Shown here: piece by piece, positions 38,282 through 53,273 of the stretch | How positions within the stretch are numbered: the stretch's first letter is position 1 | Layout: every line of letters starts with the position of its first letter | Assembly (NCBI GenBank): GCA_963703205.1 | Contig: OY969799.1 | Coordinates: 2,228,032-2,292,031, forward strand | From: an uncultured Solirubrobacteraceae bacterium | GTDB lineage: Bacteria > Actinomycetota > Thermoleophilia > Solirubrobacterales > Solirubrobacteraceae | DNA: 64,000 nucleotides | Direction: 5' to 3' | Position numbers and translations under genes: made by a program | Notes under the pieces: model-generated | Seen by the model: the letters and a program-made list of their open reading frames with translations, nothing else | Told to the model about the DNA's origin: nothing | Database searches by the model: none

Positions 38282-38782
38282 ATGACCGCCGCGAGCGAGG
38301 ACGGCGCCTTGGTCTGCGTCGTCGAGATACCGAAGGGCAGCCGCAACAAGTACGAGTACGACCCCGAGCTGGGCGGCGTGAAGTTCGACCGCCTGCTGAT
38401 GAGCGCCGCCACCTACCCGGCCGACTACGGGTTCCTGCGTGGCACGCTCGGCCAGGACGGCGACCCGCTCGACGCGCTCGTCTGCCTGTACGAGCCGACC
38501 TTCCCGGGCTGCCTGATCCCCGTCAAGCCGGTCGGCCTGTTCGACATGAGAGACGAGAAGGGGATCGATCACAAGGTGATCTGCGTGCCACTCCAGGATC
38601 CGTACTGGAACCACAACGAGCAGCTCGAGGACCTGCCGCTGCTGCTGCGCCAGGAGATCGAGCAGTTCTTCTCGATCTACAAGGAGATCGAGGGCGGCGA
38701 GGTGCAGATCGGCGGCTGGGGCTCGCGCGAGGACGCCGAGCGCGAGATCGAGCAGGCACGCCGCCGCCTGCGGGACGCCTAG
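38282..38782 (+). CDS. ppa: inorganic pyrophosphatase
   Basis: EIPKGSRNKYEYD, YPADYGF, DGDPLD, DEKGIDHK. Confidence 0.95.
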   Translation: MTAASEDGALVCVVEIPKGSRNKYEYDPELGGVKFDRLLMSAATYPADYGFLRGTLGQDGDPLDALVCLYEPTFPGCLIPVKPVGLFDMRDEKGIDHKVICVPLQDPYWNHNEQLEDLPLLLRQEIEQFFSIYKEIEGGEVQIGGWGSREDAEREIEQARRRLRDA

Positions 38783-39324
38783 CCGGGAAGCTGGCCGCCG
38801 CCGGCGAGGCCGCTCCTCGTCCGCGCCGGCTGCTCCGAGCGGGCGCGGGCGCGACCCGGTGCGCGCTGCTGCGGGCGGGCCTGCGGCGGGACGACGACGA
38901 CGGGGCAGTCCGCGTCGTGCACGACCTGCCGGCCCGTCGACCAGGGCATCCTGCCGGCGAGCAGCCCGGAGCGACCGCCGACGACGACCATCGCCGCCTC
39001 GCGTCCGGCCTCCAGCAGCACACGGTGCGGGGTGCCGCGCATCGCCCGGCGCTCGACCTCGACTCCATCGCTCGCCACGGCACCCAGCTCGATGTCCAGC
39101 AGCTCCTCGGCGTCGGCACGGCGCTCCGCGATCGATCGCGTCGAGGCCGACGGATGACCGGCGGGCGGCGCGATCGTTGCGGTCGGCCGCCAGGCCGTGA
39201 CAGCCTCCAGGCACGCCGCCCGTCGCCGGGCCTCGTCGATCGCCCAGGCCAGCGCCGCGCGCGAGGCCTCCGAGCCGTCGACGCCGACGACGATCCGCTC
39301 GCGCTGTGCGCCGGAGGCGTTCAT
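38779..39324 (-). CDS. universal stress protein
   Basis: IVVGVDGSEASRAALAWA, VVHDADCPVVVV. Confidence 0.9.
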   Translation of the reverse strand: MNASGAQRERIVVGVDGSEASRAALAWAIDEARRRAACLEAVTAWRPTATIAPPAGHPSASTRSIAERRADAEELLDIELGAVASDGVEVERRAMRGTPHRVLLEAGREAAMVVVGGRSGLLAGRMPWSTGRQVVHDADCPVVVVPPQARPQQRAPGRARARSEQPARTRSGLAGGGQLPG

Positions 39325-39337
39325 CCCTGGTTCGTTC

Positions 39338-39362
39338 GTACCCGCGGGCGTTGGCCGCAAAC
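39338..39362 (-). promoter_or_regulatory. SigB/SigF-type promoter motif
   Basis: GTTT-N15-GGGTAC upstream of usp. Confidence 0.65.
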
Positions 39363-39372
39363 GGCTGTCCGC

Positions 39373-40845
39373 TCAGCGCTGCGACTCCTGGCCGGGCGCG
39401 GTCCCGAGCGGCGGCCCCGGCGCGAGCGAGCCCGGCCCCTCCGGGCTGTCGGCGAGCACCTCGAAGCCGCCGTCCGGGGCGCGTGCGACGACCGCCCCGT
39501 CCCAGTCGCGCAAGGGATGCGTGCCGCTGCGCTGCAGCGCCCGGCAGATGCTGCGCACGACGAAGAACACGATCATCGGCAGCACCCACACGCCGGCGCG
39601 CCAGAAGTGGATCTGCTGCTGATAGGAGATGTGCAGCTGGAAGAAGATGCGGTCGGTCGAGCCGACCGCGAAGATGATCACGACCCAGCTCATGAAGGCG
39701 GCGCCGAAGGCCGTGCGGTTGGGCCGGTCGCGCGGGCGGTCGAGCAGGTCGTGGCGGCGGTAGTCGCCTGTGATGCGCCGCTCGATCGCCGGCCACGCGT
39801 ACATGAACATGAACACGAACAGCGGGAACAACGCGCCGCCCCAGAACGGGTTCGGGAACAGCGTGTGCCCGCCGATCACCGGCCCCTCCCAGTTGGGCAT
39901 CAGCCGCAGCGCGCCGATCAGCCAGCCGATGTACCAGTCGGGCTGGGCGCCGTTCTCCGACAGGTAGGTGTGGAAGGGCCCCCACTGCCAGATCGGGTTG
40001 ATCTGGATCAGCCCGCCGGCGAGGAAGATGATCGCCGCGACGCCGAACAGCAGCCCGAGCGAGCGCAGCGCGTACGCGGGCCAGGTCGGGGTCCCCACGA
40101 CGTTGCGCTCCTTGCGCCCCTTACCCGGGAACTGCGTGTGGTGAGCGCGCATGATCATCGCCAGGTGCATCGTGATCAGGATCGCGATCGCCGCCGGGAT
40201 CAGCAGCACGTGCACGATCTCCAGCCGCGGCAAGAATTCGGATGTGCCGGGGAACTGGCCGCCCCAGATCAGCGCACCCAGCTGGGCGCCGATGAAGGGA
40301 ATCGAGAGCACGACCGAGTAGGCGATCGCCAGCCCCATGCCGGACAGCAGGTCGTCGGCGAGCGAGTAGCCCGCGAAGCCCTCGAGCACCGCGAGCATCA
40401 GCATTGTCAAGCCGATCATCCAGTTGAGGTCGCGCGGCTTGCGGTAGGCGCCGGTGAAGAAGATCCGCATCACATGGACCACGATCGCCGCGATGAAGAT
40501 GTTCGCCGCCCAGTGGTGCGCCTGGCGGATCAGCAATCCCGCGGGCACGCTGAAGCTGAGGTGCACGACCGAGCTGTAGGCCTCGGACATCGTTTCGCCC
40601 TGCAGCGGGACGTACGCGCCGTGGTAGACGACCTGCGTGTCGCTGGGGATGTAGTAGATCGTCAGGAAGATCCCGGTGGCGACGAGGACGATGAACGAGT
40701 ACAGCGCGATCTCGCCGAGCAGGAAGCTCCAGTGGTCGGGGAACACGTAGCGCAGGAACCACTTCGCGCCGGTGCTCGCGCCGGCGCGTTCTTCGGCCAG
40801 GCGCAGCGTCTTGCGCATGCGCTTGTCCATCGGGCCCTGGGTCAC
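39373..40845 (-). CDS. qcrB: cytochrome bc complex cytochrome b subunit
   Basis: FPDHWSFLLGEIALYSF, RQAHHWAA, QPDWY, LLDRPRD. Confidence 0.95.
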   Translation of the reverse strand: MTQGPMDKRMRKTLRLAEERAGASTGAKWFLRYVFPDHWSFLLGEIALYSFIVLVATGIFLTIYYIPSDTQVVYHGAYVPLQGETMSEAYSSVVHLSFSVPAGLLIRQAHHWAANIFIAAIVVHVMRIFFTGAYRKPRDLNWMIGLTMLMLAVLEGFAGYSLADDLLSGMGLAIAYSVVLSIPFIGAQLGALIWGGQFPGTSEFLPRLEIVHVLLIPAAIAILITMHLAMIMRAHHTQFPGKGRKERNVVGTPTWPAYALRSLGLLFGVAAIIFLAGGLIQINPIWQWGPFHTYLSENGAQPDWYIGWLIGALRLMPNWEGPVIGGHTLFPNPFWGGALFPLFVFMFMYAWPAIERRITGDYRRHDLLDRPRDRPNRTAFGAAFMSWVVIIFAVGSTDRIFFQLHISYQQQIHFWRAGVWVLPMIVFFVVRSICRALQRSGTHPLRDWDGAVVARAPDGGFEVLADSPEGPGSLAPGPPLGTAPGQESQR

Positions 40846-40897
40846 CGCCGGGCCTCCACCGCCGCGCGCGCCTCGCCCGACGTGGCGCGGGCGCTCG

Positions 40898-41923
40898 TCA
40901 CGACTCGCTCCGTTTGACGCTCCACCAGGACGGGCCGACGTCCTCGTCGAAGCCGTGGGCGGCGCGCAGGTAGCCTTCGGCGTCGATCATCAGCGCCAGC
41001 TGCGGCAGCGCGCGGCCGGCGGGACCGAACACCACGCGGCCACCCTCGCCGGGCAGGAACGTCGAGTAGTGGCACGGGCACGTGAACGCCGGGCCGTTGC
41101 TGGTCGCCTGGTAGGTGGGATAGCGGTACAGCGAGATCGCACAGCCGGCGTGCGGGCAGATCTTCGAGTAGGCGACGATCCCCTGCGGGGCCCAGGTCCT
41201 GCGCTCCGGCGGAAGGTGCAGGTACTCCGGCTCGAGCTTCACGACCAGCAGCCCGGAGCCGATCGCCTCGGGATCGCCGTGCTCGGGGAGCGCGGTGTAG
41301 AAGCTGCCCGCCGTGATGTCGCTCGCCAGGTAGGGCGTCCCTTTGTCGTCGACGAGCCGCACGCCGCGATGCCAGGGGGTGTAGTGGAAGTCGTCGAGGT
41401 TCGGCCCGAGCGAGGCCAGCGGCGTGACGGCGGCGGTCAGCAGCCCGGCACCGGCGATCCCCGCGGCGCCGCCGAGCAGCGCGCGGCGGCTGATCCCCTC
41501 CCCACCCTGCTCGATGATGTCGGCGACTTCTTCGGCCTCCTCCTCCTTGAGCATCAGGCCGCGCTCCTCGACCTCGGTCTCCTGCGGCACGACCAGCTTG
41601 CCCGCCACGACGAGCGCGGCGGCGCACAGCGCCAGCGCGCCGCCCATCGCGAGGCCGAGCAGCTGCGTGTTGTGCCCTTCGACCGCGTAGACGGCCGTGA
41701 AGCCGAAGCCGAAGACCGCTGACAGCGCCAGCAGCGCCGCGACCACCGTCTCGGCACGGCGGTTGGCCGGCACGGTGCGCTCTCTGGGATCCTCCTCGGA
41801 CTCGAGCGCGGCCGGCGGCGGGGGCTCGGCGATTGCTCCCCGCAGGACTCGCAGTGCGACCAGCCTGCCCGCCAGCTTCGTCACGACCCGCAGCGCTCCG
41901 CGGCGGGGGTCCAATGGCGTCAT
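40898..41923 (-). CDS. qcrA: Rieske iron-sulfur subunit
   Basis: TM helices, internal SRRALL Tat motif, SKICPHAGC, CPCHYS. Confidence 0.93.
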   Translation of the reverse strand: MTPLDPRRGALRVVTKLAGRLVALRVLRGAIAEPPPPAALESEEDPRERTVPANRRAETVVAALLALSAVFGFGFTAVYAVEGHNTQLLGLAMGGALALCAAALVVAGKLVVPQETEVEERGLMLKEEEAEEVADIIEQGGEGISRRALLGGAAGIAGAGLLTAAVTPLASLGPNLDDFHYTPWHRGVRLVDDKGTPYLASDITAGSFYTALPEHGDPEAIGSGLLVVKLEPEYLHLPPERRTWAPQGIVAYSKICPHAGCAISLYRYPTYQATSNGPAFTCPCHYSTFLPGEGGRVVFGPAGRALPQLALMIDAEGYLRAAHGFDEDVGPSWWSVKRSES

Positions 41924-41933
41924 CCGATCCTCC

Positions 41934-42800
41934 TCATGTCGTTCGCTCGCCGATCACCCGCGCGAACAGGATGAGCGAGAACAGCAGCAGGAACCAGGCG
42001 ACCATCCCCTCGGGGATGGGCCCGATGTTGTAGATCCCCCACCCCCCTGCGTCCTCGGGGTGCTGGGTCCAGAGCACGTAGCGCGCCAGCGAGTTGAGCT
42101 GGTGCTGGTCGATCTGCTTGGTGTCGAAGTGCGGCATCAGGTACGGGCCCATGCGGACCGCCTCGGCGACCTCCCGGGCGGTCACGTGGAGCAGCGCCGG
42201 GACGAACGCGCCGATCGTGAGCCCGCCGCGTCCGACCATCTGGTGACAGCCCGCGCAGCTCAGGGTGAATTCGTGACGGCCGAGGTTGAGGTTGCCGTTG
42301 GCGGCTTGTGCTTCCGGCGCGGGCGGCCCGCCGAACGAGGCGACGAACGCCACGAGCGCGTCGATCTCCTTGCGCGTGTAGTGGGTCGGCGAGCGCATCG
42401 GCTGGTCGCGCGGGTTCTGCAGCGGCATGCGCCCGGTCGAGAGGTAGAAGTCGGGCGGGCCCGCGCCGAGCCCGATCAGAGAGGGCGCGATCCGCCGGCG
42501 CCCCTGCAGCGCGATGCCATGGCAGGAGGAGCAGCCTTCCCTGTAGAGCGTGCGCCCTTCCGCAACCAGCGCCGGCGAGCTCGGCAGCGGGGCGGTCAGT
42601 TCGCCGGGCGCCGGCGCGATCGGGCGCTTGTTCGGGAGGACGAGTTCGGAGGAGGCGCCGGCGCCCCCGGAGCTGGCCGGCGCCTGTCCCGCGACGAGCA
42701 GTGACAGGCCGAGCGCGGCGCAGGCGGTAGCCAGCGCGACGCGCAGCGGCGCCGGGGTGCGCGGGCGGCGACGCAGCCAGCGGCGAGGAAGCGAGCTCAT
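41934..42800 (-). CDS. qcrC: di-heme cytochrome c subunit
   Basis: CSSCH and CAGCH; TGRMP; GPIPEG C-terminal TM. Confidence 0.92.
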   Translation of the reverse strand: MSSLPRRWLRRRPRTPAPLRVALATACAALGLSLLVAGQAPASSGGAGASSELVLPNKRPIAPAPGELTAPLPSSPALVAEGRTLYREGCSSCHGIALQGRRRIAPSLIGLGAGPPDFYLSTGRMPLQNPRDQPMRSPTHYTRKEIDALVAFVASFGGPPAPEAQAANGNLNLGRHEFTLSCAGCHQMVGRGGLTIGAFVPALLHVTAREVAEAVRMGPYLMPHFDTKQIDQHQLNSLARYVLWTQHPEDAGGWGIYNIGPIPEGMVAWFLLLFSLILFARVIGERTT

Positions 42801-43660
42801 CGCCTCGCCTCGATCGAGGCCTGCGCCGCGAGATCCGCGCGCCACTCCCGCGCGGACATGCGGCGCTCCTCGGCGATCATCGTCGCGAGCGCGCTCGTCA
42901 GCCCGACGACCGTCAGCAGCACGCCGCCGCCGACCCACATGATCGCCCCCGCGCGGCGCTGGTCGAGGACCGCCGAGATCCCGAGCGCGCGGGCGGCCGA
43001 TGCGTACGGCGCGTAGACGACGCTCGTCGAGTCGTTCAGGTACGCGCCGACGAGCGCCATCGCCGGCGAGGCCGCGATCAGGTAGGCGAGCCGCCCCACG
43101 CCGCCGAGCCGCCGGCGCGCGCCGGGGTCGGCGTCGAGCAGCGGCGTGAACAGCAGCAGCCCCGCGAGCAGATAGGCGGCGTGCTCGGTGTCGTGGAGCA
43201 GCGGGTGGCGCAGCGTCGCGTCATAGAAGCCCGGAAGATGCGTGCCGAGCACGACGGCGGCGAAGATCGCCAGCGCCGGCAGCGGCGCGGCGAGCGGTCG
43301 CATCAGCGCGACGGCGCGCGCCGCGCCGGGCCGCTGCGCCGGCCGCAGCGCCCGCAGCGCGAGCGTCACGGGCCGGCCGAGCAGCAGCAGCACCGGCGCC
43401 ACCATCAGCAGCAGCATGTGCTGGACCATGTGGTCGGAGAGCAGGCGGTCGTCGTAGCCGTCGACGCCCGACTGCAGCGCCACGAGCACGACACCCACGC
43501 CCGCCGCGAAGCAGGCGGCGCGCCACGCCGGCCACGTGCGCACACGCAGCGTCGCCCACGCGTAGAGGAGCAGGTAGAGCGCGGCGACCGCCTCCAGCCC
43601 GGCGTCGAAGTGCCAGCCGCGCAGCGGCATCGACAGCAGCGAGGGCGCCGCGGCGATCAT
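42797..43660 (-). CDS. ctaG: caa3-type oxidase assembly factor CtaG
   Basis: HMVQHMLLLMVAP.LL.LGRP, HDTEH, DQRRAGAIMW. Confidence 0.85.
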   Translation of the reverse strand: MIAAAPSLLSMPLRGWHFDAGLEAVAALYLLLYAWATLRVRTWPAWRAACFAAGVGVVLVALQSGVDGYDDRLLSDHMVQHMLLLMVAPVLLLLGRPVTLALRALRPAQRPGAARAVALMRPLAAPLPALAIFAAVVLGTHLPGFYDATLRHPLLHDTEHAAYLLAGLLLFTPLLDADPGARRRLGGVGRLAYLIAASPAMALVGAYLNDSTSVVYAPYASAARALGISAVLDQRRAGAIMWVGGGVLLTVVGLTSALATMIAEERRMSAREWRADLAAQASIEARR

Positions 43661-44139
43661 GCGCCCGGCCGCTCCCGTTCGACCTTCGGATCGGCCGCCG
43701 GTTCGGGCTCCGCCGGGCGGCTGCCGCGGAGGCCGGCCTCGCCGGGCCGCGGCGGCCGGTGCGCGCGCAGCGTCGCCCGCTCGGCGCGCAGCTCGAGCGC
43801 GAGGCGGCCGATCGACAGCAGCAGCAGGCCGGCCCCGAAGTAGGTCAGGAAGTGACCCCAGACGAACCCGAAGCCGATCGTCGCGATCGAGAAGCCGATC
43901 AGGCCTGCGGCGAAGCTGATGTCGGGAACGGCCTCGACTTTCGCCCGTGCGGGCGGCGGACCCCTGCGCAGGGCTTCGCGCCCCGACAGCGCGATCGCCA
44001 CGGCCGACAGCACCATGATCGCGAGCGAGCCGCCGCTGATCGCGACCTGCGTAGGTTCGCCCGCGTAGATCCAGTGCCCCAGGAACAGCACCAGCAGCAG
44101 CGCCGACCAAGCCAGCACGACCAGCGCTCCGCCCCTCAT
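43657..44139 (-). CDS. 4-TM membrane protein in oxidase operon (possible small accessory subunit)
   Basis: Hydrophobic helices; ATGA-coupled to ctaG. Confidence 0.65.
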   Translation of the reverse strand: MRGGALVVLAWSALLLVLFLGHWIYAGEPTQVAISGGSLAIMVLSAVAIALSGREALRRGPPPARAKVEAVPDISFAAGLIGFSIATIGFGFVWGHFLTYFGAGLLLLSIGRLALELRAERATLRAHRPPRPGEAGLRGSRPAEPEPAADPKVERERPGA

Positions 44140-44155
44140 CGTGCGCTCCCGCCGA

Positions 44156-45841
44156 TCACAGCCGGTCCTCCGGCGCCGGTCCGAGCCCGCCGCTGCCCGA
44201 GGGGACGCGCTCCATCAGCCCGCCGTGCCGCTCGACGGCCTGTTCGCGCCAGTCCATCAGCGGCGCGTAGGAGCGAACCGGCGGCAGCGGGCGGTCGAAG
44301 TTGTGCGCCGGCGGCGGCGAGGAGGTCGCCCACTCGAGCGTGTGCCCGAGCCATGGGTCGTCCCCCGCCTCCTCGCGACGGCGCAGCGAGACCCACACGT
44401 TGACGATGAAGATCAGGATCGCGAGCGCGATGATCCCGGCGCCGATCGACTCCACCAGGTTCAGCGTGCCCCATTGCGGGTCTTCCGGATATTCGGCGAT
44501 CCTCCTCGTCATGCCTTTTTCGCCGAGGAAGAACATCGGGCCGAAGGTCATGTTGGTGCCGATCGTGAGCACCGCCCAGTGCAGCTTCCCGAGCCCCTCC
44601 CGCAGCCTCGCGCCGGTGAGCTTCGGGAACCAGTGGTAGACGCCCGCGAAGAAGCCGAAGACGCTGCCCGCGAACAGCGTGTAGTGGAAGTGCGCGATCA
44701 GGAAGTAGCTCTGGTGCACCTGGTAGTCGAGCACCGGCGAGGCGACGAAGATCCCGCTCAGGCCGCCGATCAGGAACTGCAGGAAGAAGCCCAGCGCGAA
44801 CAGCATCGAGGTGCGCAGCACGATCGAGCCGCCGATCAGCGTCGCGATCATGTCGAAGTACTCGATTCCCGCCGGCACCACCAGCAACGTCGAGGTGAAC
44901 GCGAAGTACTGGTTGGTGACCCCGCCGGTCGTGAACATGTGGTGTGACCACACGGCCATCGAGAGCGCCGAGAAGACCATCATCGAGGCGACGAACGCCT
45001 TGTAGCCGAACCAGCGCTTGCGGGCGTTGACGGCGATCGCCTCGGCAGCCGCCCCGAGGTACGGGAAGAACATCACGTAGACGACGGGATGCCCGAAGAA
45101 CCAGAACATGTCCTGGTAGTCGATCGAGCCCCTGAAGCCGGTGAAGATGTGCGCCCCCCACCGTTCGGCGAAGAGCAGGCACATCACGACCACGAGCACC
45201 GGGAACGCGCCCACCACCATCAGCACGCTGACCAGGCCGGTCCACGTGTACACGGGCATCCGCAGCAGCGCCATGCCGGGCGCGCGCCGGCGCACGACGG
45301 TCGCGAGCACGCACGCCGCGACGAGGATCAGGCCGAGCGCGGCGAGGATCACGCCGAGCGTCCACATGTCCTGTCCCACGCCCGGGGTCCAAGCGGCGTT
45401 CGAGAGCGGCACGTAGGCGAACCAGCCGGCGTGCCCCGGCCCTTCCTGCGTGAGCCAGCCGGACTGCATGATGATCCCGCCCGAGGTCCACATCCAGAAC
45501 CCGGCGAGCGCGACGCGCATCCCGGACAGGTTCGCCGCGCCGATCTGCAGCGGCACGAGGTACACCGACATCGCGATCGCCATCGGCGTGACGAACAGGT
45601 AGATCATGGTCGAGCCGTGCATCGTGAACAGGGCTTCGTAGGCGCTGTAGCTGACGAAGTGCGTCGCCGGCTGGGCCAGCTGCACGCGCATCAGCAGCGC
45701 CATCACGCCGCCGCCGAGGAAGTACAGGAAGGAGGCGGCCATCATGTTCACGCCGAGCCGCTTGTGGTCGGTGCTGGCGAGCGCGCCGATCCAGCCCGGT
45801 GTGCGCGGCAGCGTCGTCAGCCGCGGAGCGGTGACGTTCAC
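44156..45841 (-). CDS. ctaD: heme-copper oxidase subunit I, atypical proton-channel residues
   Basis: STDHK, TMHG, WFFGHPVVY, WSHHMF, AHFHY, GMTRR; GTG start overlaps ctaC stop. Confidence 0.95.
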   Translation of the reverse strand: MNVTAPRLTTLPRTPGWIGALASTDHKRLGVNMMAASFLYFLGGGVMALLMRVQLAQPATHFVSYSAYEALFTMHGSTMIYLFVTPMAIAMSVYLVPLQIGAANLSGMRVALAGFWMWTSGGIIMQSGWLTQEGPGHAGWFAYVPLSNAAWTPGVGQDMWTLGVILAALGLILVAACVLATVVRRRAPGMALLRMPVYTWTGLVSVLMVVGAFPVLVVVMCLLFAERWGAHIFTGFRGSIDYQDMFWFFGHPVVYVMFFPYLGAAAEAIAVNARKRWFGYKAFVASMMVFSALSMAVWSHHMFTTGGVTNQYFAFTSTLLVVPAGIEYFDMIATLIGGSIVLRTSMLFALGFFLQFLIGGLSGIFVASPVLDYQVHQSYFLIAHFHYTLFAGSVFGFFAGVYHWFPKLTGARLREGLGKLHWAVLTIGTNMTFGPMFFLGEKGMTRRIAEYPEDPQWGTLNLVESIGAGIIALAILIFIVNVWVSLRRREEAGDDPWLGHTLEWATSSPPPAHNFDRPLPPVRSYAPLMDWREQAVERHGGLMERVPSGSGGLGPAPEDRL

Positions 45842-46545
45842 GAGGAGGCTCCTTCGTGTCCGGAGCTTCGCGTTTCGCCCGCGCCGCCGGCCGCTCCGGG
45901 GCGGCGGTTCGAGGCGGCCCACACCGCGAACTGCTTCGGCGGCACGGCTCGCACCGAGAACACCATGCGCGTGTGGTACAGGCCACAGAATTCTCCGCAG
46001 TGGCCCTGGAAGGTGCCGGGGCGCGTGAAGGTCAGGATCTCGGTCTGTGCCATCCCCGGGATCAGATCGTGCTTGTACTTGAGCTCGGGAACCCAGAACT
46101 CGTGGATGACGTCGAGCGAGACCAGCCTGAAGGCAATCGCCTCGTTGGTCGGGACCACGAGCTGTTCGTGTCCGACCGTCCCGCTGTAACGGCTGATCCC
46201 GTATTCCGGGTACTGGAAGTGCCACTCCCAGCGCGAGCCGAAGACGGTGACGTGCAGCTGCGGGCGCTCCCTGCGCGCCGAGGCGTCGACCCGGTTCTCA
46301 GCCGAGAACGTGACGTAGAGCAGGAAGCCGACGATCAGCGCGAGGACCACCGCGTAGCCGGCCTCGAGCGGGTTGTTCTCGTGCCAGCGGCTGGCCTGTG
46401 AGGGCTCGCGGCGCCGGAACAGGAGGACCGCGCCGATCGTCAGGACGAGGACGACGCCGAAGACCGCGAGGCCGATCGGGACGTAGATGCTGAAGACGTG
46501 TTCGTATTCGTGCCGCGTCGAGACCAGCGCGAAGGTCTCAGACAT
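45838..46545 (-). CDS. ctaC: cytochrome c oxidase subunit II (CuA)
   Basis: Two TM, RWEWHFQY, DVIHEFW, CGEFCGLYHTRM. Confidence 0.93.
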   Translation of the reverse strand: MSETFALVSTRHEYEHVFSIYVPIGLAVFGVVLVLTIGAVLLFRRREPSQASRWHENNPLEAGYAVVLALIVGFLLYVTFSAENRVDASARRERPQLHVTVFGSRWEWHFQYPEYGISRYSGTVGHEQLVVPTNEAIAFRLVSLDVIHEFWVPELKYKHDLIPGMAQTEILTFTRPGTFQGHCGEFCGLYHTRMVFSVRAVPPKQFAVWAASNRRPGAAGGAGETRSSGHEGASS

Positions 46546-46599
46546 CGCGGACGGGGCAGCAGCGGAGCCGGATCTCCCTCAGCACCATCTTCTTGCCCG

Positions 46600-46624
46600 C
46601 TACCCCAGGCACGGTCCGCGAAAC
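46600..46624 (-). promoter_or_regulatory. SigB/SigF-type promoter motif of the oxidase-bc operon
   Basis: GTTT-N15-GGGTAG, about 55 nt upstream of ctaC ATG. Confidence 0.65.
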
Positions 46625-52194: not shown

Positions 52195-52226
52195 CTCCCA
52201 CCGGTGTTTTGCTGCACCGGTGGGAG
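52195..52226. terminator. 12-bp perfect hairpin between PfpI gene and sigma gene
   Basis: ctcccaccggtg-ttttgctg-caccggtgggag; no U-tract. Confidence 0.5.
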
Positions 52227-52328
52227 GGGTAGGCTGTGTGCGAGCGACTCTGTAGGAGGACGTAGCGTGATCACCCCCCAGCCGCTTCGGGCGGCTATCG
52301 AAAGGAAGGACGGAACCGACGCAATCGC

Positions 52329-53273
52329 GTGCGGGACCGTTGCTCCGGTGGTGGGGCTGAGCGCCGCGGACTACACGGGGTCCGGGCGCCTTCTGCGCCG
52401 ACCTCGCTGCTAGCCCGCGGCGACACCCGTCCGTCTCGCGACGGCGAGCGAAAGCGCGCCCAGCGGGAGCCTGCGCTGACGGCGGGCCTGCTCGCCCGGC
52501 GGACCAGCACCGCGCCGCACACGGCCGCCGGGCCGGCGGTGAACGAGCTGTTCGCGCGGCTTCGGGAGGAAAACGACACCGTCGCGCGCGAAACGCTCGC
52601 CTCGATGTTCATGCCGCTGGCGCGCCGGCTCGCACAGCGCTACGTGCGCTCCTCCGAGCCACGGGAGGACCTCGTGCAGGTCGCGAGCCTCGGTCTCGTG
52701 AAGGCGATCGACCGCTTCGATCCGAGCCGCGGCCACACCTTCGCGTCGTACGCGATCCCGACGATCCTCGGCGAGCTGCGCCGCTACTTCCGCGACTCCA
52801 CGTGGTCGGTCCACGTTCCCCGTGGCGCCCAGGAGCGCGCGGCAGCGATCGAAACCGCCCAGGAGGCGCTGCGCGGCGAACATCGCGGCGCGCCGACCGT
52901 CGCCCAGATCGCCGATTACCTGGAAGTCAGCAGCGAGGAGGTGCTCGACGGGATGCTGGCGGTGCGCGCCTACGAAGCCGACTCGCTCGACGCACCCGCG
53001 GTGCCGGGCGAGGACGGCGAGGGACGCTCTGGGCTCGACCGGATCGGCAGCGAGGACGCCCGCTACGAGCTGATCGAGGCCGACGTCAGCGCGGCTCCGG
53101 TGATCCGTGAGCTCCCCGAGCGCGAGCGCCGCGTGCTGCACCTTCGCTTCGTTCAGGAAATGAGCCAGAGCGAAATCGCCGCGCAGATCGGCGTCTCGCA
53201 GATGCAGGTCTCGCGGATCCTCGCGCGCTGCCTGGCGCAGATCCGCGAGCAGGCCGACGCGCCGGCCGGCTGA
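52329..53273 (+). CDS. SigB/SigF-family RNA polymerase sigma factor
   Basis: EDLVQVASLGLVKAIDRFDP, YAIPTILGELRRYFRD, SQSEIA..IGVSQMQVSR; true start probably further downstream (e.g. GTG52539). Confidence 0.93.
   Translation: MRDRCSGGGAERRGLHGVRAPSAPTSLLARGDTRPSRDGERKRAQREPALTAGLLARRTSTAPHTAAGPAVNELFARLREENDTVARETLASMFMPLARRLAQRYVRSSEPREDLVQVASLGLVKAIDRFDPSRGHTFASYAIPTILGELRRYFRDSTWSVHVPRGAQERAAAIETAQEALRGEHRGAPTVAQIADYLEVSSEEVLDGMLAVRAYEADSLDAPAVPGEDGEGRSGLDRIGSEDARYELIEADVSAAPVIRELPERERRVLHLRFVQEMSQSEIAAQIGVSQMQVSRILARCLAQIREQADAPAG

Follow-up and report, generated by a model that had tools for sequence, protein, structure and literature searches.

A bcc–oxidase cassette of Solirubrobacterales with a putatively rebuilt proton path and a stress-type promoter motif

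RESULTS

A seven-gene respiratory cassette

The window analysed here is a 64,000-nucleotide stretch of contig OY969799.1 (positions 2,228,032 to 2,292,031; assembly GCA_963703205.1) from an uncultured Solirubrobacteraceae bacterium, and it holds, at positions 39,373 to 46,624, a cassette of seven genes that would encode a cytochrome bcc complex together with a heme-copper oxidase. All seven open reading frames (ORFs) lie on the minus strand in the order ctaC-ctaD-orf160-ctaG-qcrC-qcrA-qcrB, tightly packed with start/stop overlaps at three of the junctions, and Pfam assigns to them COX2, COX1, no family (orf160), Caa3_CtaG, a diheme cytochrome c, QcrA_N plus Rieske, and cytochrome b, respectively. 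An initial annotation, made from the sequence alone, had given this gene order and the absence of the subunit III gene ctaE, and had proposed a second, stress-related respiratory chain in which ctaE and the D channel were lost together. The order and the absence of ctaE were borne out, the only COX3 match of the host genome lying at C1:732 kb. Among near relatives (223 stretches matched, 189 confirmed and the best 80 kept, all from metagenome-assembled genomes of Solirubrobacterales), the complete order is found in 75 of the 80 loci; three of the five incomplete ones reach a contig edge after ctaG, one ends inside ctaD and one carries a ctaD-to-qcrB deletion (L090).

Subunit II is encoded by ctaC (45838..46545; PF00116), whose product carries the CuA site and the glutamate at the entry of the K path (E61); the CuA His/Cys/Cys/His/Met set and E61 are kept in 78/80 relatives, with two gaps. 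Window CtaC has a short N-terminal tail without a lipobox cysteine, and a cysteine occurs within the first 40 aligned residues in just 5/80 relatives. The subunit I gene ctaD (44156..45841) begins with GTG and is followed by orf160 (43657..44139) and by ctaG (42797..43660; PF09678, E 1e-59), which encodes a caa3-type copper assembly factor and is absent from a few distant cassettes (e.g. L150, L173, L185 and L260).

The remaining genes have the features of an actinobacterial bcc complex, although QcrA and QcrC fall below the NCBIfam cut-offs. The diheme cytochrome c gene qcrC (41934..42800) reaches 186 bits with NF050122, slightly below the cut-off of 200, and its two CxxCH motifs and two Met ligands are conserved in 74–75 of 75 relatives. 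The multi-transmembrane Rieske protein of qcrA (40898..41923; PF19297 and PF00355) retains its Cys/His ligands in 73–74 of 75, and the cytochrome b of qcrB (39373..40830; bc1_QcrB NF050120, 553 against a cut-off of 500) has a PDWY Qo motif (PDW/FY being the expected form) and heme His ligands conserved in 74–76 of 76. The C terminus of QcrB is ∼70 residues short of mycobacterial QcrB, and its alignment to the solved protein stops near residue 470 of ∼546. The idea that loss of this C-terminal 'lid' co-evolved with loss of the D channel was rejected, because reference QcrBs beside oxidases with intact D channels (L275–L280 and L282) are equally short, as judged from C-terminal tails rather than from exactly placed lid residues. 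A simple scan found no terminator after qcrB and no sigma-70-type site near ctaC.

A CtaD clade with a replaced D channel and a glutamate in the K path

The six histidine ligands and the cross-link tyrosine (Y255) of window CtaD are intact. In Rhodobacter sphaeroides numbering (Y33, N121, D132, N139, N207, E286, K362, T359 and other positions named below), the D-channel sites Y33, N121, D132, N139, N207 and E286 are all replaced, by M33, V93, N104, A111, C177 and V253, in agreement with the D-channel loss suggested by the initial annotation, and the K path reads A266, A324, E327, Y328 and D330. In an alignment with Mycobacterium smegmatis CtaD, the residues numbered in PMC11189923 as D115, E266, Y268, T337 and K340 correspond to N104, V253, Y255, A324 and E327 of the window protein.

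These replacements are shared by relatives. In the near loci (n = 80) the ligands and the Y288 equivalent are invariant (80/80; H421 in 79, with one gap), the D132 site is R, S, G or another residue, N139 is mostly A and the E286 site is V in all 80. Among 240 CtaD proteins selected by similarity alone (54–95% identity), the E286 site is V or A and the K362 site E in every one, the latter always followed by tyrosine (Y328), with A at the T359 site in 238 and G in 2, and D at the S365 site in 232; the S299 site is A or G in the clade. The metal ligands are invariant in the same 240 proteins, as is the cross-link tyrosine four residues after the helix VI histidine, the arrangement of an O2 reductase. 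The initial annotation did not mention this family-wide exchange of the K-channel lysine for glutamate. A distant set of 111 sequences was picked by pattern, so that absence of E286 there is the selection criterion itself; where the positions are covered, the K362 site is E in 101/103 and D in 2/103, and Y328 is present in 103/103. Cofactor ligands remain invariant across 43–95% identity. Outside the clade, Glu at the K362 site was seen in 1 of 150 library representatives (P0232).

The defining residues of the established classes are missing. The window motif is GHPVVY in place of the A1 XGHPEVY (as defined in PMC8361435), the A1 K-channel Lys/Thr pair is gone, and the A1 D-channel Asp/Asn positions (D132, N121, N139 and N207) are replaced and variable. 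The A2 motif YSHPXVY is likewise absent, the clade having FGHP or YGHP with Gly always, and Tyr without Ser in 86/111 distant members. The B-family residues S309, T312, Y248 and Y244 map to A324, E327, A266 and L262, with weak similarity to ba3, and the Tyr to Glu, Gln or Asn change of nitric oxide (NO) reductases is not found. Fold, the six His ligands, the CuA subunit II and tree position point to A-family descent. By its defining residues, as aligned here, the CtaD clade is thus neither A1, A2, B nor NO reductase, and it is placed in the A family by descent. Eighteen positions conserved in 69 canonical controls are lost in the clade; nine of these, with channel assignments that we have partly assumed, are D- or K-channel residues (Y33, N93, D104, N111, N177, E253, S266, T324 and K327 in window numbering). 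The clade retains equivalents of R481/R482 and D407 and varies at H411; the W172 and F282 equivalents are W and F/Y, and new conserved polar residues (S77, Y81, T388 and S393) are found near the hemes.

In quick IQ-TREE runs on subsets (82 and 38 rows, none of them B-family), the clade is supported at 100, its stem measures 0.5–0.6, and it falls within a node (support 100) that also holds Actinomycetia CtaD and other CtaF-linked enzymes. Window CtaD matches bcc-aa3 CtaD at E 2e-136 and ba3 at E 3e-6 or weaker, and a structural model built on 81 sequences (predicted local distance difference test, pLDDT, 86) has bcc-aa3 CtaD as its best match (template modelling score 0.90); a single-sequence fold was poor (pLDDT 42.6) and was not used. 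Residue mapping, conservation, tree and model together identify CtaD as a monophyletic offshoot of the actinobacterial A1 enzymes. The fixed E327 and Y328, the variable D-channel positions and the retained CtaC E61 fit a cytoplasmic path that is in use. A different channel variant, in which Gln stands at K362 and Glu at N207, is seen in many long COX1 proteins (650–860 aa; P0123, P0127, P0130 and others).

orf160 and the missing ctaE

The product of orf160 has four hydrophobic segments, as the initial annotation had described, and no Pfam match on its own. Its family (126 homologues) aligns end to end with CtaF by HHalign (91.4%, then 97.1%, with a pairwise E of 6.6e-11), and PF12270 is the top family for its members (21/69 at E ≤ 0.1, best 2.8e-6). 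Several distant orf160 genes match both profiles, and the gene directly follows ctaD, the usual place of ctaF. The window protein itself falls short of the PF12270 cut-off and keeps P72 and S75 of the P-x-S-x-W-P stretch with loss of WP, and no CtaF chain came up when PDB sequences were searched with profiles from the two orf160 alignments, an outcome that speaks against the assignment and that we ascribe to divergence. A predicted CtaD–orf160 complex scored 0.75 against 0.00 for the best control, with runs agreeing in at least 95% of contacts and a partner pLDDT of at least 76; the score mark is attained by 116/157 solved complexes and by 2/215 mismatched pairs. Since CtaD–CtaF complexes have already been solved, the score may stem from resemblance to them and not from binding by this particular copy. 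A holin or otherwise unrelated protein was considered, as Phage_holin_3_6 was the top Pfam hit for 21/54 close relatives (E ≤ 1), and was rejected when it fell behind PF12270 after distant members were added.

Profile similarity and position thus identify orf160 as a divergent CtaF, and not as the dedicated replacement subunit that the initial annotation had thought possible; an ordinary CtaF, which that annotation had named as a refutation, is what was found, in softened form. In the known enzymes, CtaF supplies helices 1–2 of subunit III and CtaE the rest (PMC8361435; bioRxiv 2021.06.16.448340), so that the equivalent of helices 1–2 is likely retained through orf160 and the description 'lacking subunit III' probably holds for the five-helix CtaE part only. 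A fusion is seen in several actinobacterial genomes (L283–L289), where CtaD carries the latter half of CtaF at its C terminus and ctaE comes next.

With host CtaE as query, no match was found in the 80 near loci or in 133 further loci, 40 of the latter being under 700 bases; the same query matches 14 of 20 reference loci, which indicates that the search is able to detect ctaE. One cassette-bearing genome that is 96% complete (G482) has no COX3 match at all. In the other six reference loci (L276–L280 and L282), ctaC-D-F face the qcr genes and ctaE is not nearby, COX3 being found on other contigs in the five genomes checked, and all six keep N121, D132, N139, N207, E286 and K362. A cluster without ctaE therefore does not require loss of the D channel, and the co-evolution of the two losses put forward in the initial annotation is not shown. 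It may be that ctaE left before the D channel was lost: the quick tree places a D-intact CtaD without neighbouring ctaE (L276) beside the clade, at a support of 85 only, which does not establish the order of events. The arrangement of these deep actinobacterial lineages, with ctaC-D-F converging on qcrCAB and channels intact, is a possible ancestral state.

Distribution of the cassette

More distant members, found with the helix VI pattern, comprise at least 120 metagenome stretches and 13 genomes. The strict pattern matches 13/401 genomes of the class, spread over four families, and 12 of the 13 fetched regions carry all seven genes, the other lacking ctaG. Among 401 genomes of the phylum the DNA pattern gave 4 matches, all in the same taxonomic order and none outside it; a protein search with a threshold of E 1e-50 gave 2 and overlooked distant members. 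These phylum tallies take in four unpublished genomes (G001, G048, G088 and G120), on whose sequences none of the conclusions depends. Because the pattern is strict, the prevalence figures are a lower bound. Named database matches belong to Solirubrobacterales, Gaiellaceae or unplaced Actinomycetota, and several are labelled 'cbb3-type' by NCBI, which is wrong. A plasmid search returned no clade member (best match 45%), and no RNA run was among those listed by a sequencing-run search (shares 0.05–0.08). The most divergent members (L154, L170, L182, L192, L193 and L210) include some without adjacent qcr genes or with G/A at D330. One genome (G502) has two near-identical cassettes on contigs C2 and C4 (L261 and L262), each behind a short qcrB fragment; one copy lies near a contig end and is possibly an assembly duplicate.

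Other respiratory genes of the host and related genomes

Four subunit I loci, the cassette among them, are found in the host genome (79.8% complete). Canonical A1 (GHPEVY) and A2 (YSHPAVY) ctaCD pairs lie near C1:734–742 kb, beside the sole ctaE, and these two pairs thus share one ctaE locus. The region C1:732,000–743,000 (L008) holds the pairs in tandem with ctaB. There the A2 ctaD is separated from the single ctaE by a 280-aa ORF that has no Pfam hit and resembles a universal stress protein by sequence inspection. A fourth locus with GHPEVY (C1:3,072,000–3,077,000; L009) comprises an unassigned cupredoxin-like ORF, ctaC, ctaD and a ctaG, all of them frameshifted, and the frameshifts may be assembly errors. 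A separate split-cytochrome-b Rieske complex is found at 2,966 kb, and heme A synthase is present. All 13 cassette-bearing genomes have at least two further subunit I genes (at least three in total), 12/13 have ctaE elsewhere, and a bd oxidase occurs in 9/13 and was not found in 4/13, including the host. With canonical A1/A2 oxidases and the only ctaE elsewhere in the genome, the cassette is a second, accessory respiratory chain, as the initial annotation had proposed.

A stress-type promoter motif and a general-stress island

A GTTT-N15-GGGTAG motif lies 54 nt before the ctaC ATG (46600..46624, minus strand). GGGTA is found upstream of ctaC in 55/79 near loci, against a shuffle mean of 5.7 and 4 on the reverse strand, and in 21/52 distant loci against 3.9 in shuffles; the fuller GNTT-N13-17-GGGTA occurs in 35/79 near loci against 0.1, and the strict GTTT form in just 7/79. 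The motif reported in the initial annotation is thus present beyond chance, and with its match to the M. smegmatis SigF consensus GTTT-N14-19-GGGTA (PMC4694148), its conserved place and a cognate sigma factor in the genome, it is a SigB/SigF-type promoter as judged by motif and context.

The setting is also of stress type. The window holds 13 distinct GNTT-N13-17-GGGTA sites, nine of them between 33 and 56 kb, and the region 33200–56100 is a dense general-stress island in which these nine motifs accompany genes for a universal stress protein, pyrophosphatase, DUF6328, PfpI, DUF892, a bacterial topoisomerase IB and a SigB/F/G-family sigma factor. The universal stress protein gene (38779..39362, minus strand; PF00582) has its own GTTT-N15-GGGTA at 39362 and is not conserved with the cassette, a close homologue being found in 1/80 related loci. 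The sigma factor gene (52206..53270, plus strand; TIGR02980, 267.6 bits, over the cut-off; C1:2280612) has a motif at 52206 and is a candidate regulator of the cassette. In the host genome the same motif precedes PfpI, YciF, Mn-catalase-like, CBS and universal stress protein genes, some named by sequence inspection.

In near loci with enough flank (n = 65), formate dehydrogenase genes are found in 32–35 (NF041513, over the cut-off), directly upstream and co-oriented in 28 by hand count, and a thiamine diphosphate-dependent, PoxB-like gene lies in the flanks of 28; these counts are not independent because kin share neighbourhoods. In the host, formate dehydrogenase and PoxB-like genes lie away from the cassette, both behind the same motif. 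The former is an FdhA-FdhB-NrfD-like operon (C1:2,813,009–2,818,042) with an in-frame TGA, presumably the usual selenocysteine site.

DISCUSSION

The system that the cassette most resembles is the actinobacterial bcc-aa3 supercomplex (M. smegmatis 6ADQ/6HWH/7RH5; Corynebacterium glutamicum 7Q21), which provides the best matches to CtaD, in sequence and fold, and to QcrB, and shares the diheme QcrC, the multi-transmembrane QcrA, a CtaF homologue and the ctaC-D-F order; the CtaD clade nests in that group. It differs in having no ctaE, in the N, V, A and E that stand for D115, E266, T337 and K340, in the short QcrB tail, in a ctaG inside the operon, and in an accessory role behind a stress-type motif. 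The B-family enzymes, such as Thermus thermophilus ba3, are alike in having one proton channel only, no D channel and no Glu at the E286 site, and they too lack a gene for a five-helix subunit III. In contrast to ba3, the cassette CtaD is of separate origin, has none of S309/T312/Y248/Y244, keeps CtaF and is wired to a bcc complex. Replacement of the K-channel lysine is known from A-family 'modified' K channels (Degli Esposti 2021, PMC8239418), but in the supplementary table for Fig. S7 of that survey the lysine gives way to hydrophobic residues, Thr or Tyr/Gly and never to Glu, the Solirubrobacterales rows are canonical A2, and several listed subclades keep HPEVY, whereas in cassette CtaD both the D channel and the lysine are gone. 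Among NO reductases derived from the B family (Murali 2024, PMC11214002), sNOR is similar in missing the S309/T359 hydroxyl and in its conserved channel Glu; that Glu is E255 on helix VI and the tyrosine is Asn, unlike cassette CtaD, which keeps Tyr and has its Glu on helix VIII, and Dataset S1 of the same study has no Glu at T312. Our literature searches found no description of the CtaD clade (HPVVY with oxidase gave no match), though family surveys outside the search might list it.

We propose that the cassette encodes an accessory, stress-induced chain of a bcc complex and a heme-copper oxidase that reduces O2, takes protons through a single rebuilt path lined with acidic residues and pumps weakly if at all, a reading to which we give a probability of roughly 0.55. 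By analogy with bcc-aa3 biochemistry, quinol, presumably menaquinol, would be oxidized at QcrB/QcrA, and diheme QcrC would hand the electrons on to CuA, from which they would reach heme a and the a3-CuB-Tyr site, with CtaG loading copper. Substrate protons may enter at CtaC E61 and move by way of D330 and E327 to Y255; orf160 would pack on CtaD, and CtaE may be unneeded, given that it would have no mouth of a D channel to support. A III2IV2 supercomplex is suggested by the shared operon and by the fact that the cassette has no gene for a soluble carrier. A SigB/F sigma factor would switch on the cassette together with the selenocysteine formate dehydrogenase and the PoxB-like enzyme, both reducing the quinone pool, and the result would be a low-yield electron sink for starving or stressed cells in which most charge separation comes from the Q cycle. 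In M. smegmatis, the SigF regulon is reported to be induced upon aa3 deletion (PMC7693655).

Several observations weigh against this proposal. Ala replaces T359, the link between the K path and the tyrosine, leaving the last proton step without explanation, and the D132 site is still acidic in distant members (E in 65 and D in 25 of 102), in which the channel Asn residues are lost. CtaE and CtaF form the main III–IV interface in M. smegmatis (PMC8361435), so that a supercomplex without CtaE would have to use a different one. No promoter motif precedes ctaC in 24/79 near and 31/52 distant loci, the linkage to formate dehydrogenase is weak in distant loci (n = 32; 4 with formate dehydrogenase and 8 with the PoxB-like gene), and the PoxB-like protein does not reach the cut-offs set for pyruvate oxidase models.

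The presence of ctaE elsewhere in 12/13 genomes also makes use of CtaE in trans possible, and the cassette could then be an ordinary split cluster that borrows the housekeeping subunit for a normal C-D-E-F core, as the shared ctaE of the two canonical host pairs and the six D-intact reference loci without ctaE would allow. We regard this as unlikely, if the least so of the alternatives, and it overlaps the other readings: ctaE is missing from all 80 and 133 cassette loci (many of the 133 being short) even though ctaF and ctaG are kept, the 96% complete G482 has no COX3 match, and the question concerns composition only and leaves the channel rewiring unaffected. Somewhat less probable is convergence on the B family, with the rebuilt K path carrying both substrate and pumped protons (∼0.5 H+/e−) and D-channel loss opening an O2 route in a high-affinity, low-oxygen oxidase. 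Such an A to B transition for higher O2 affinity has been proposed (PMC11214002, citing earlier work). The R481/R482 and D407 equivalents are retained, no bd oxidase was found in 4/13 genomes, including the 80% complete host, and GHPVVY resembles the ba3 motif, GHPIVY. Set against these are the replaced B1 K-channel residues (S309, T312, Y248 and Y244 of PMC11214002 Dataset S1), the bulky residues that remain at W172 and F282, the variable H411 position, the bd oxidase already present in 9/13 genomes and a promoter of general-stress type.

Loss of two K-path hydroxyls (T359 to A and S299 to A/G), together with the new polar residues near the hemes, could instead mark a non-electrogenic oxidase with both cytoplasmic channels closed, a structural E327 and protons taken from the outer side, serving as an electron valve or O2 scavenger; we consider this improbable, as 78/80 relatives keep the glutamate at the cytoplasmic entry in subunit II and a fixed E327, Y328 and D330 on the cytoplasmic half of helix VIII would be hard to explain without a proton role. 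Still less can be said for an NO reductase or another stress-detoxifying terminal reductase that uses the new Glu. Several such families arose from O2 reductases (PMC11214002) and the promoter is of stress type, but every NO reductase in Dataset S1 of that study has Q, N or E for the cross-link tyrosine, which is kept in 240/240 here and is the stated requirement for O2 chemistry, and E327 occupies the K362 site rather than a metal-ligand site. A decaying or inactive paralogue, which patchy occurrence (13/401 class genomes with the strict pattern) and the L090 deletion might suggest, is scarcely credible given the invariant cofactor ligands at 43–95% identity, the fixed new residues and the intact seven-gene order.

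In wider terms, and tentatively, since we hold this full description a little more likely to fail in some part than to stand entire, the clade may be an undescribed heme-copper oxidase subfamily whose departure from the A family was separate from that of the B family, with all proton uptake by way of a carboxylate K path (Glu-Tyr-Asp for Lys-Thr-Ser), no CtaE and a new interface to bcc, at the end of a formate/pyruvate-to-O2 chain under a stress sigma factor in soil Thermoleophilia. It has long been asked what makes two proton channels necessary in A-family oxidases and why lysine serves in the K channel, and a natural D-channel knock-out combined with a Lys-to-Glu change, under selection across hundreds of soil sequences, offers a direct test of both questions. 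Such a subfamily would represent a second, independent step from two proton channels to one and, if it also pumps, a new pumping design; if it does not, annotation by family, as A-type and pumping, would overstate the energy yield in common soil actinobacteria.

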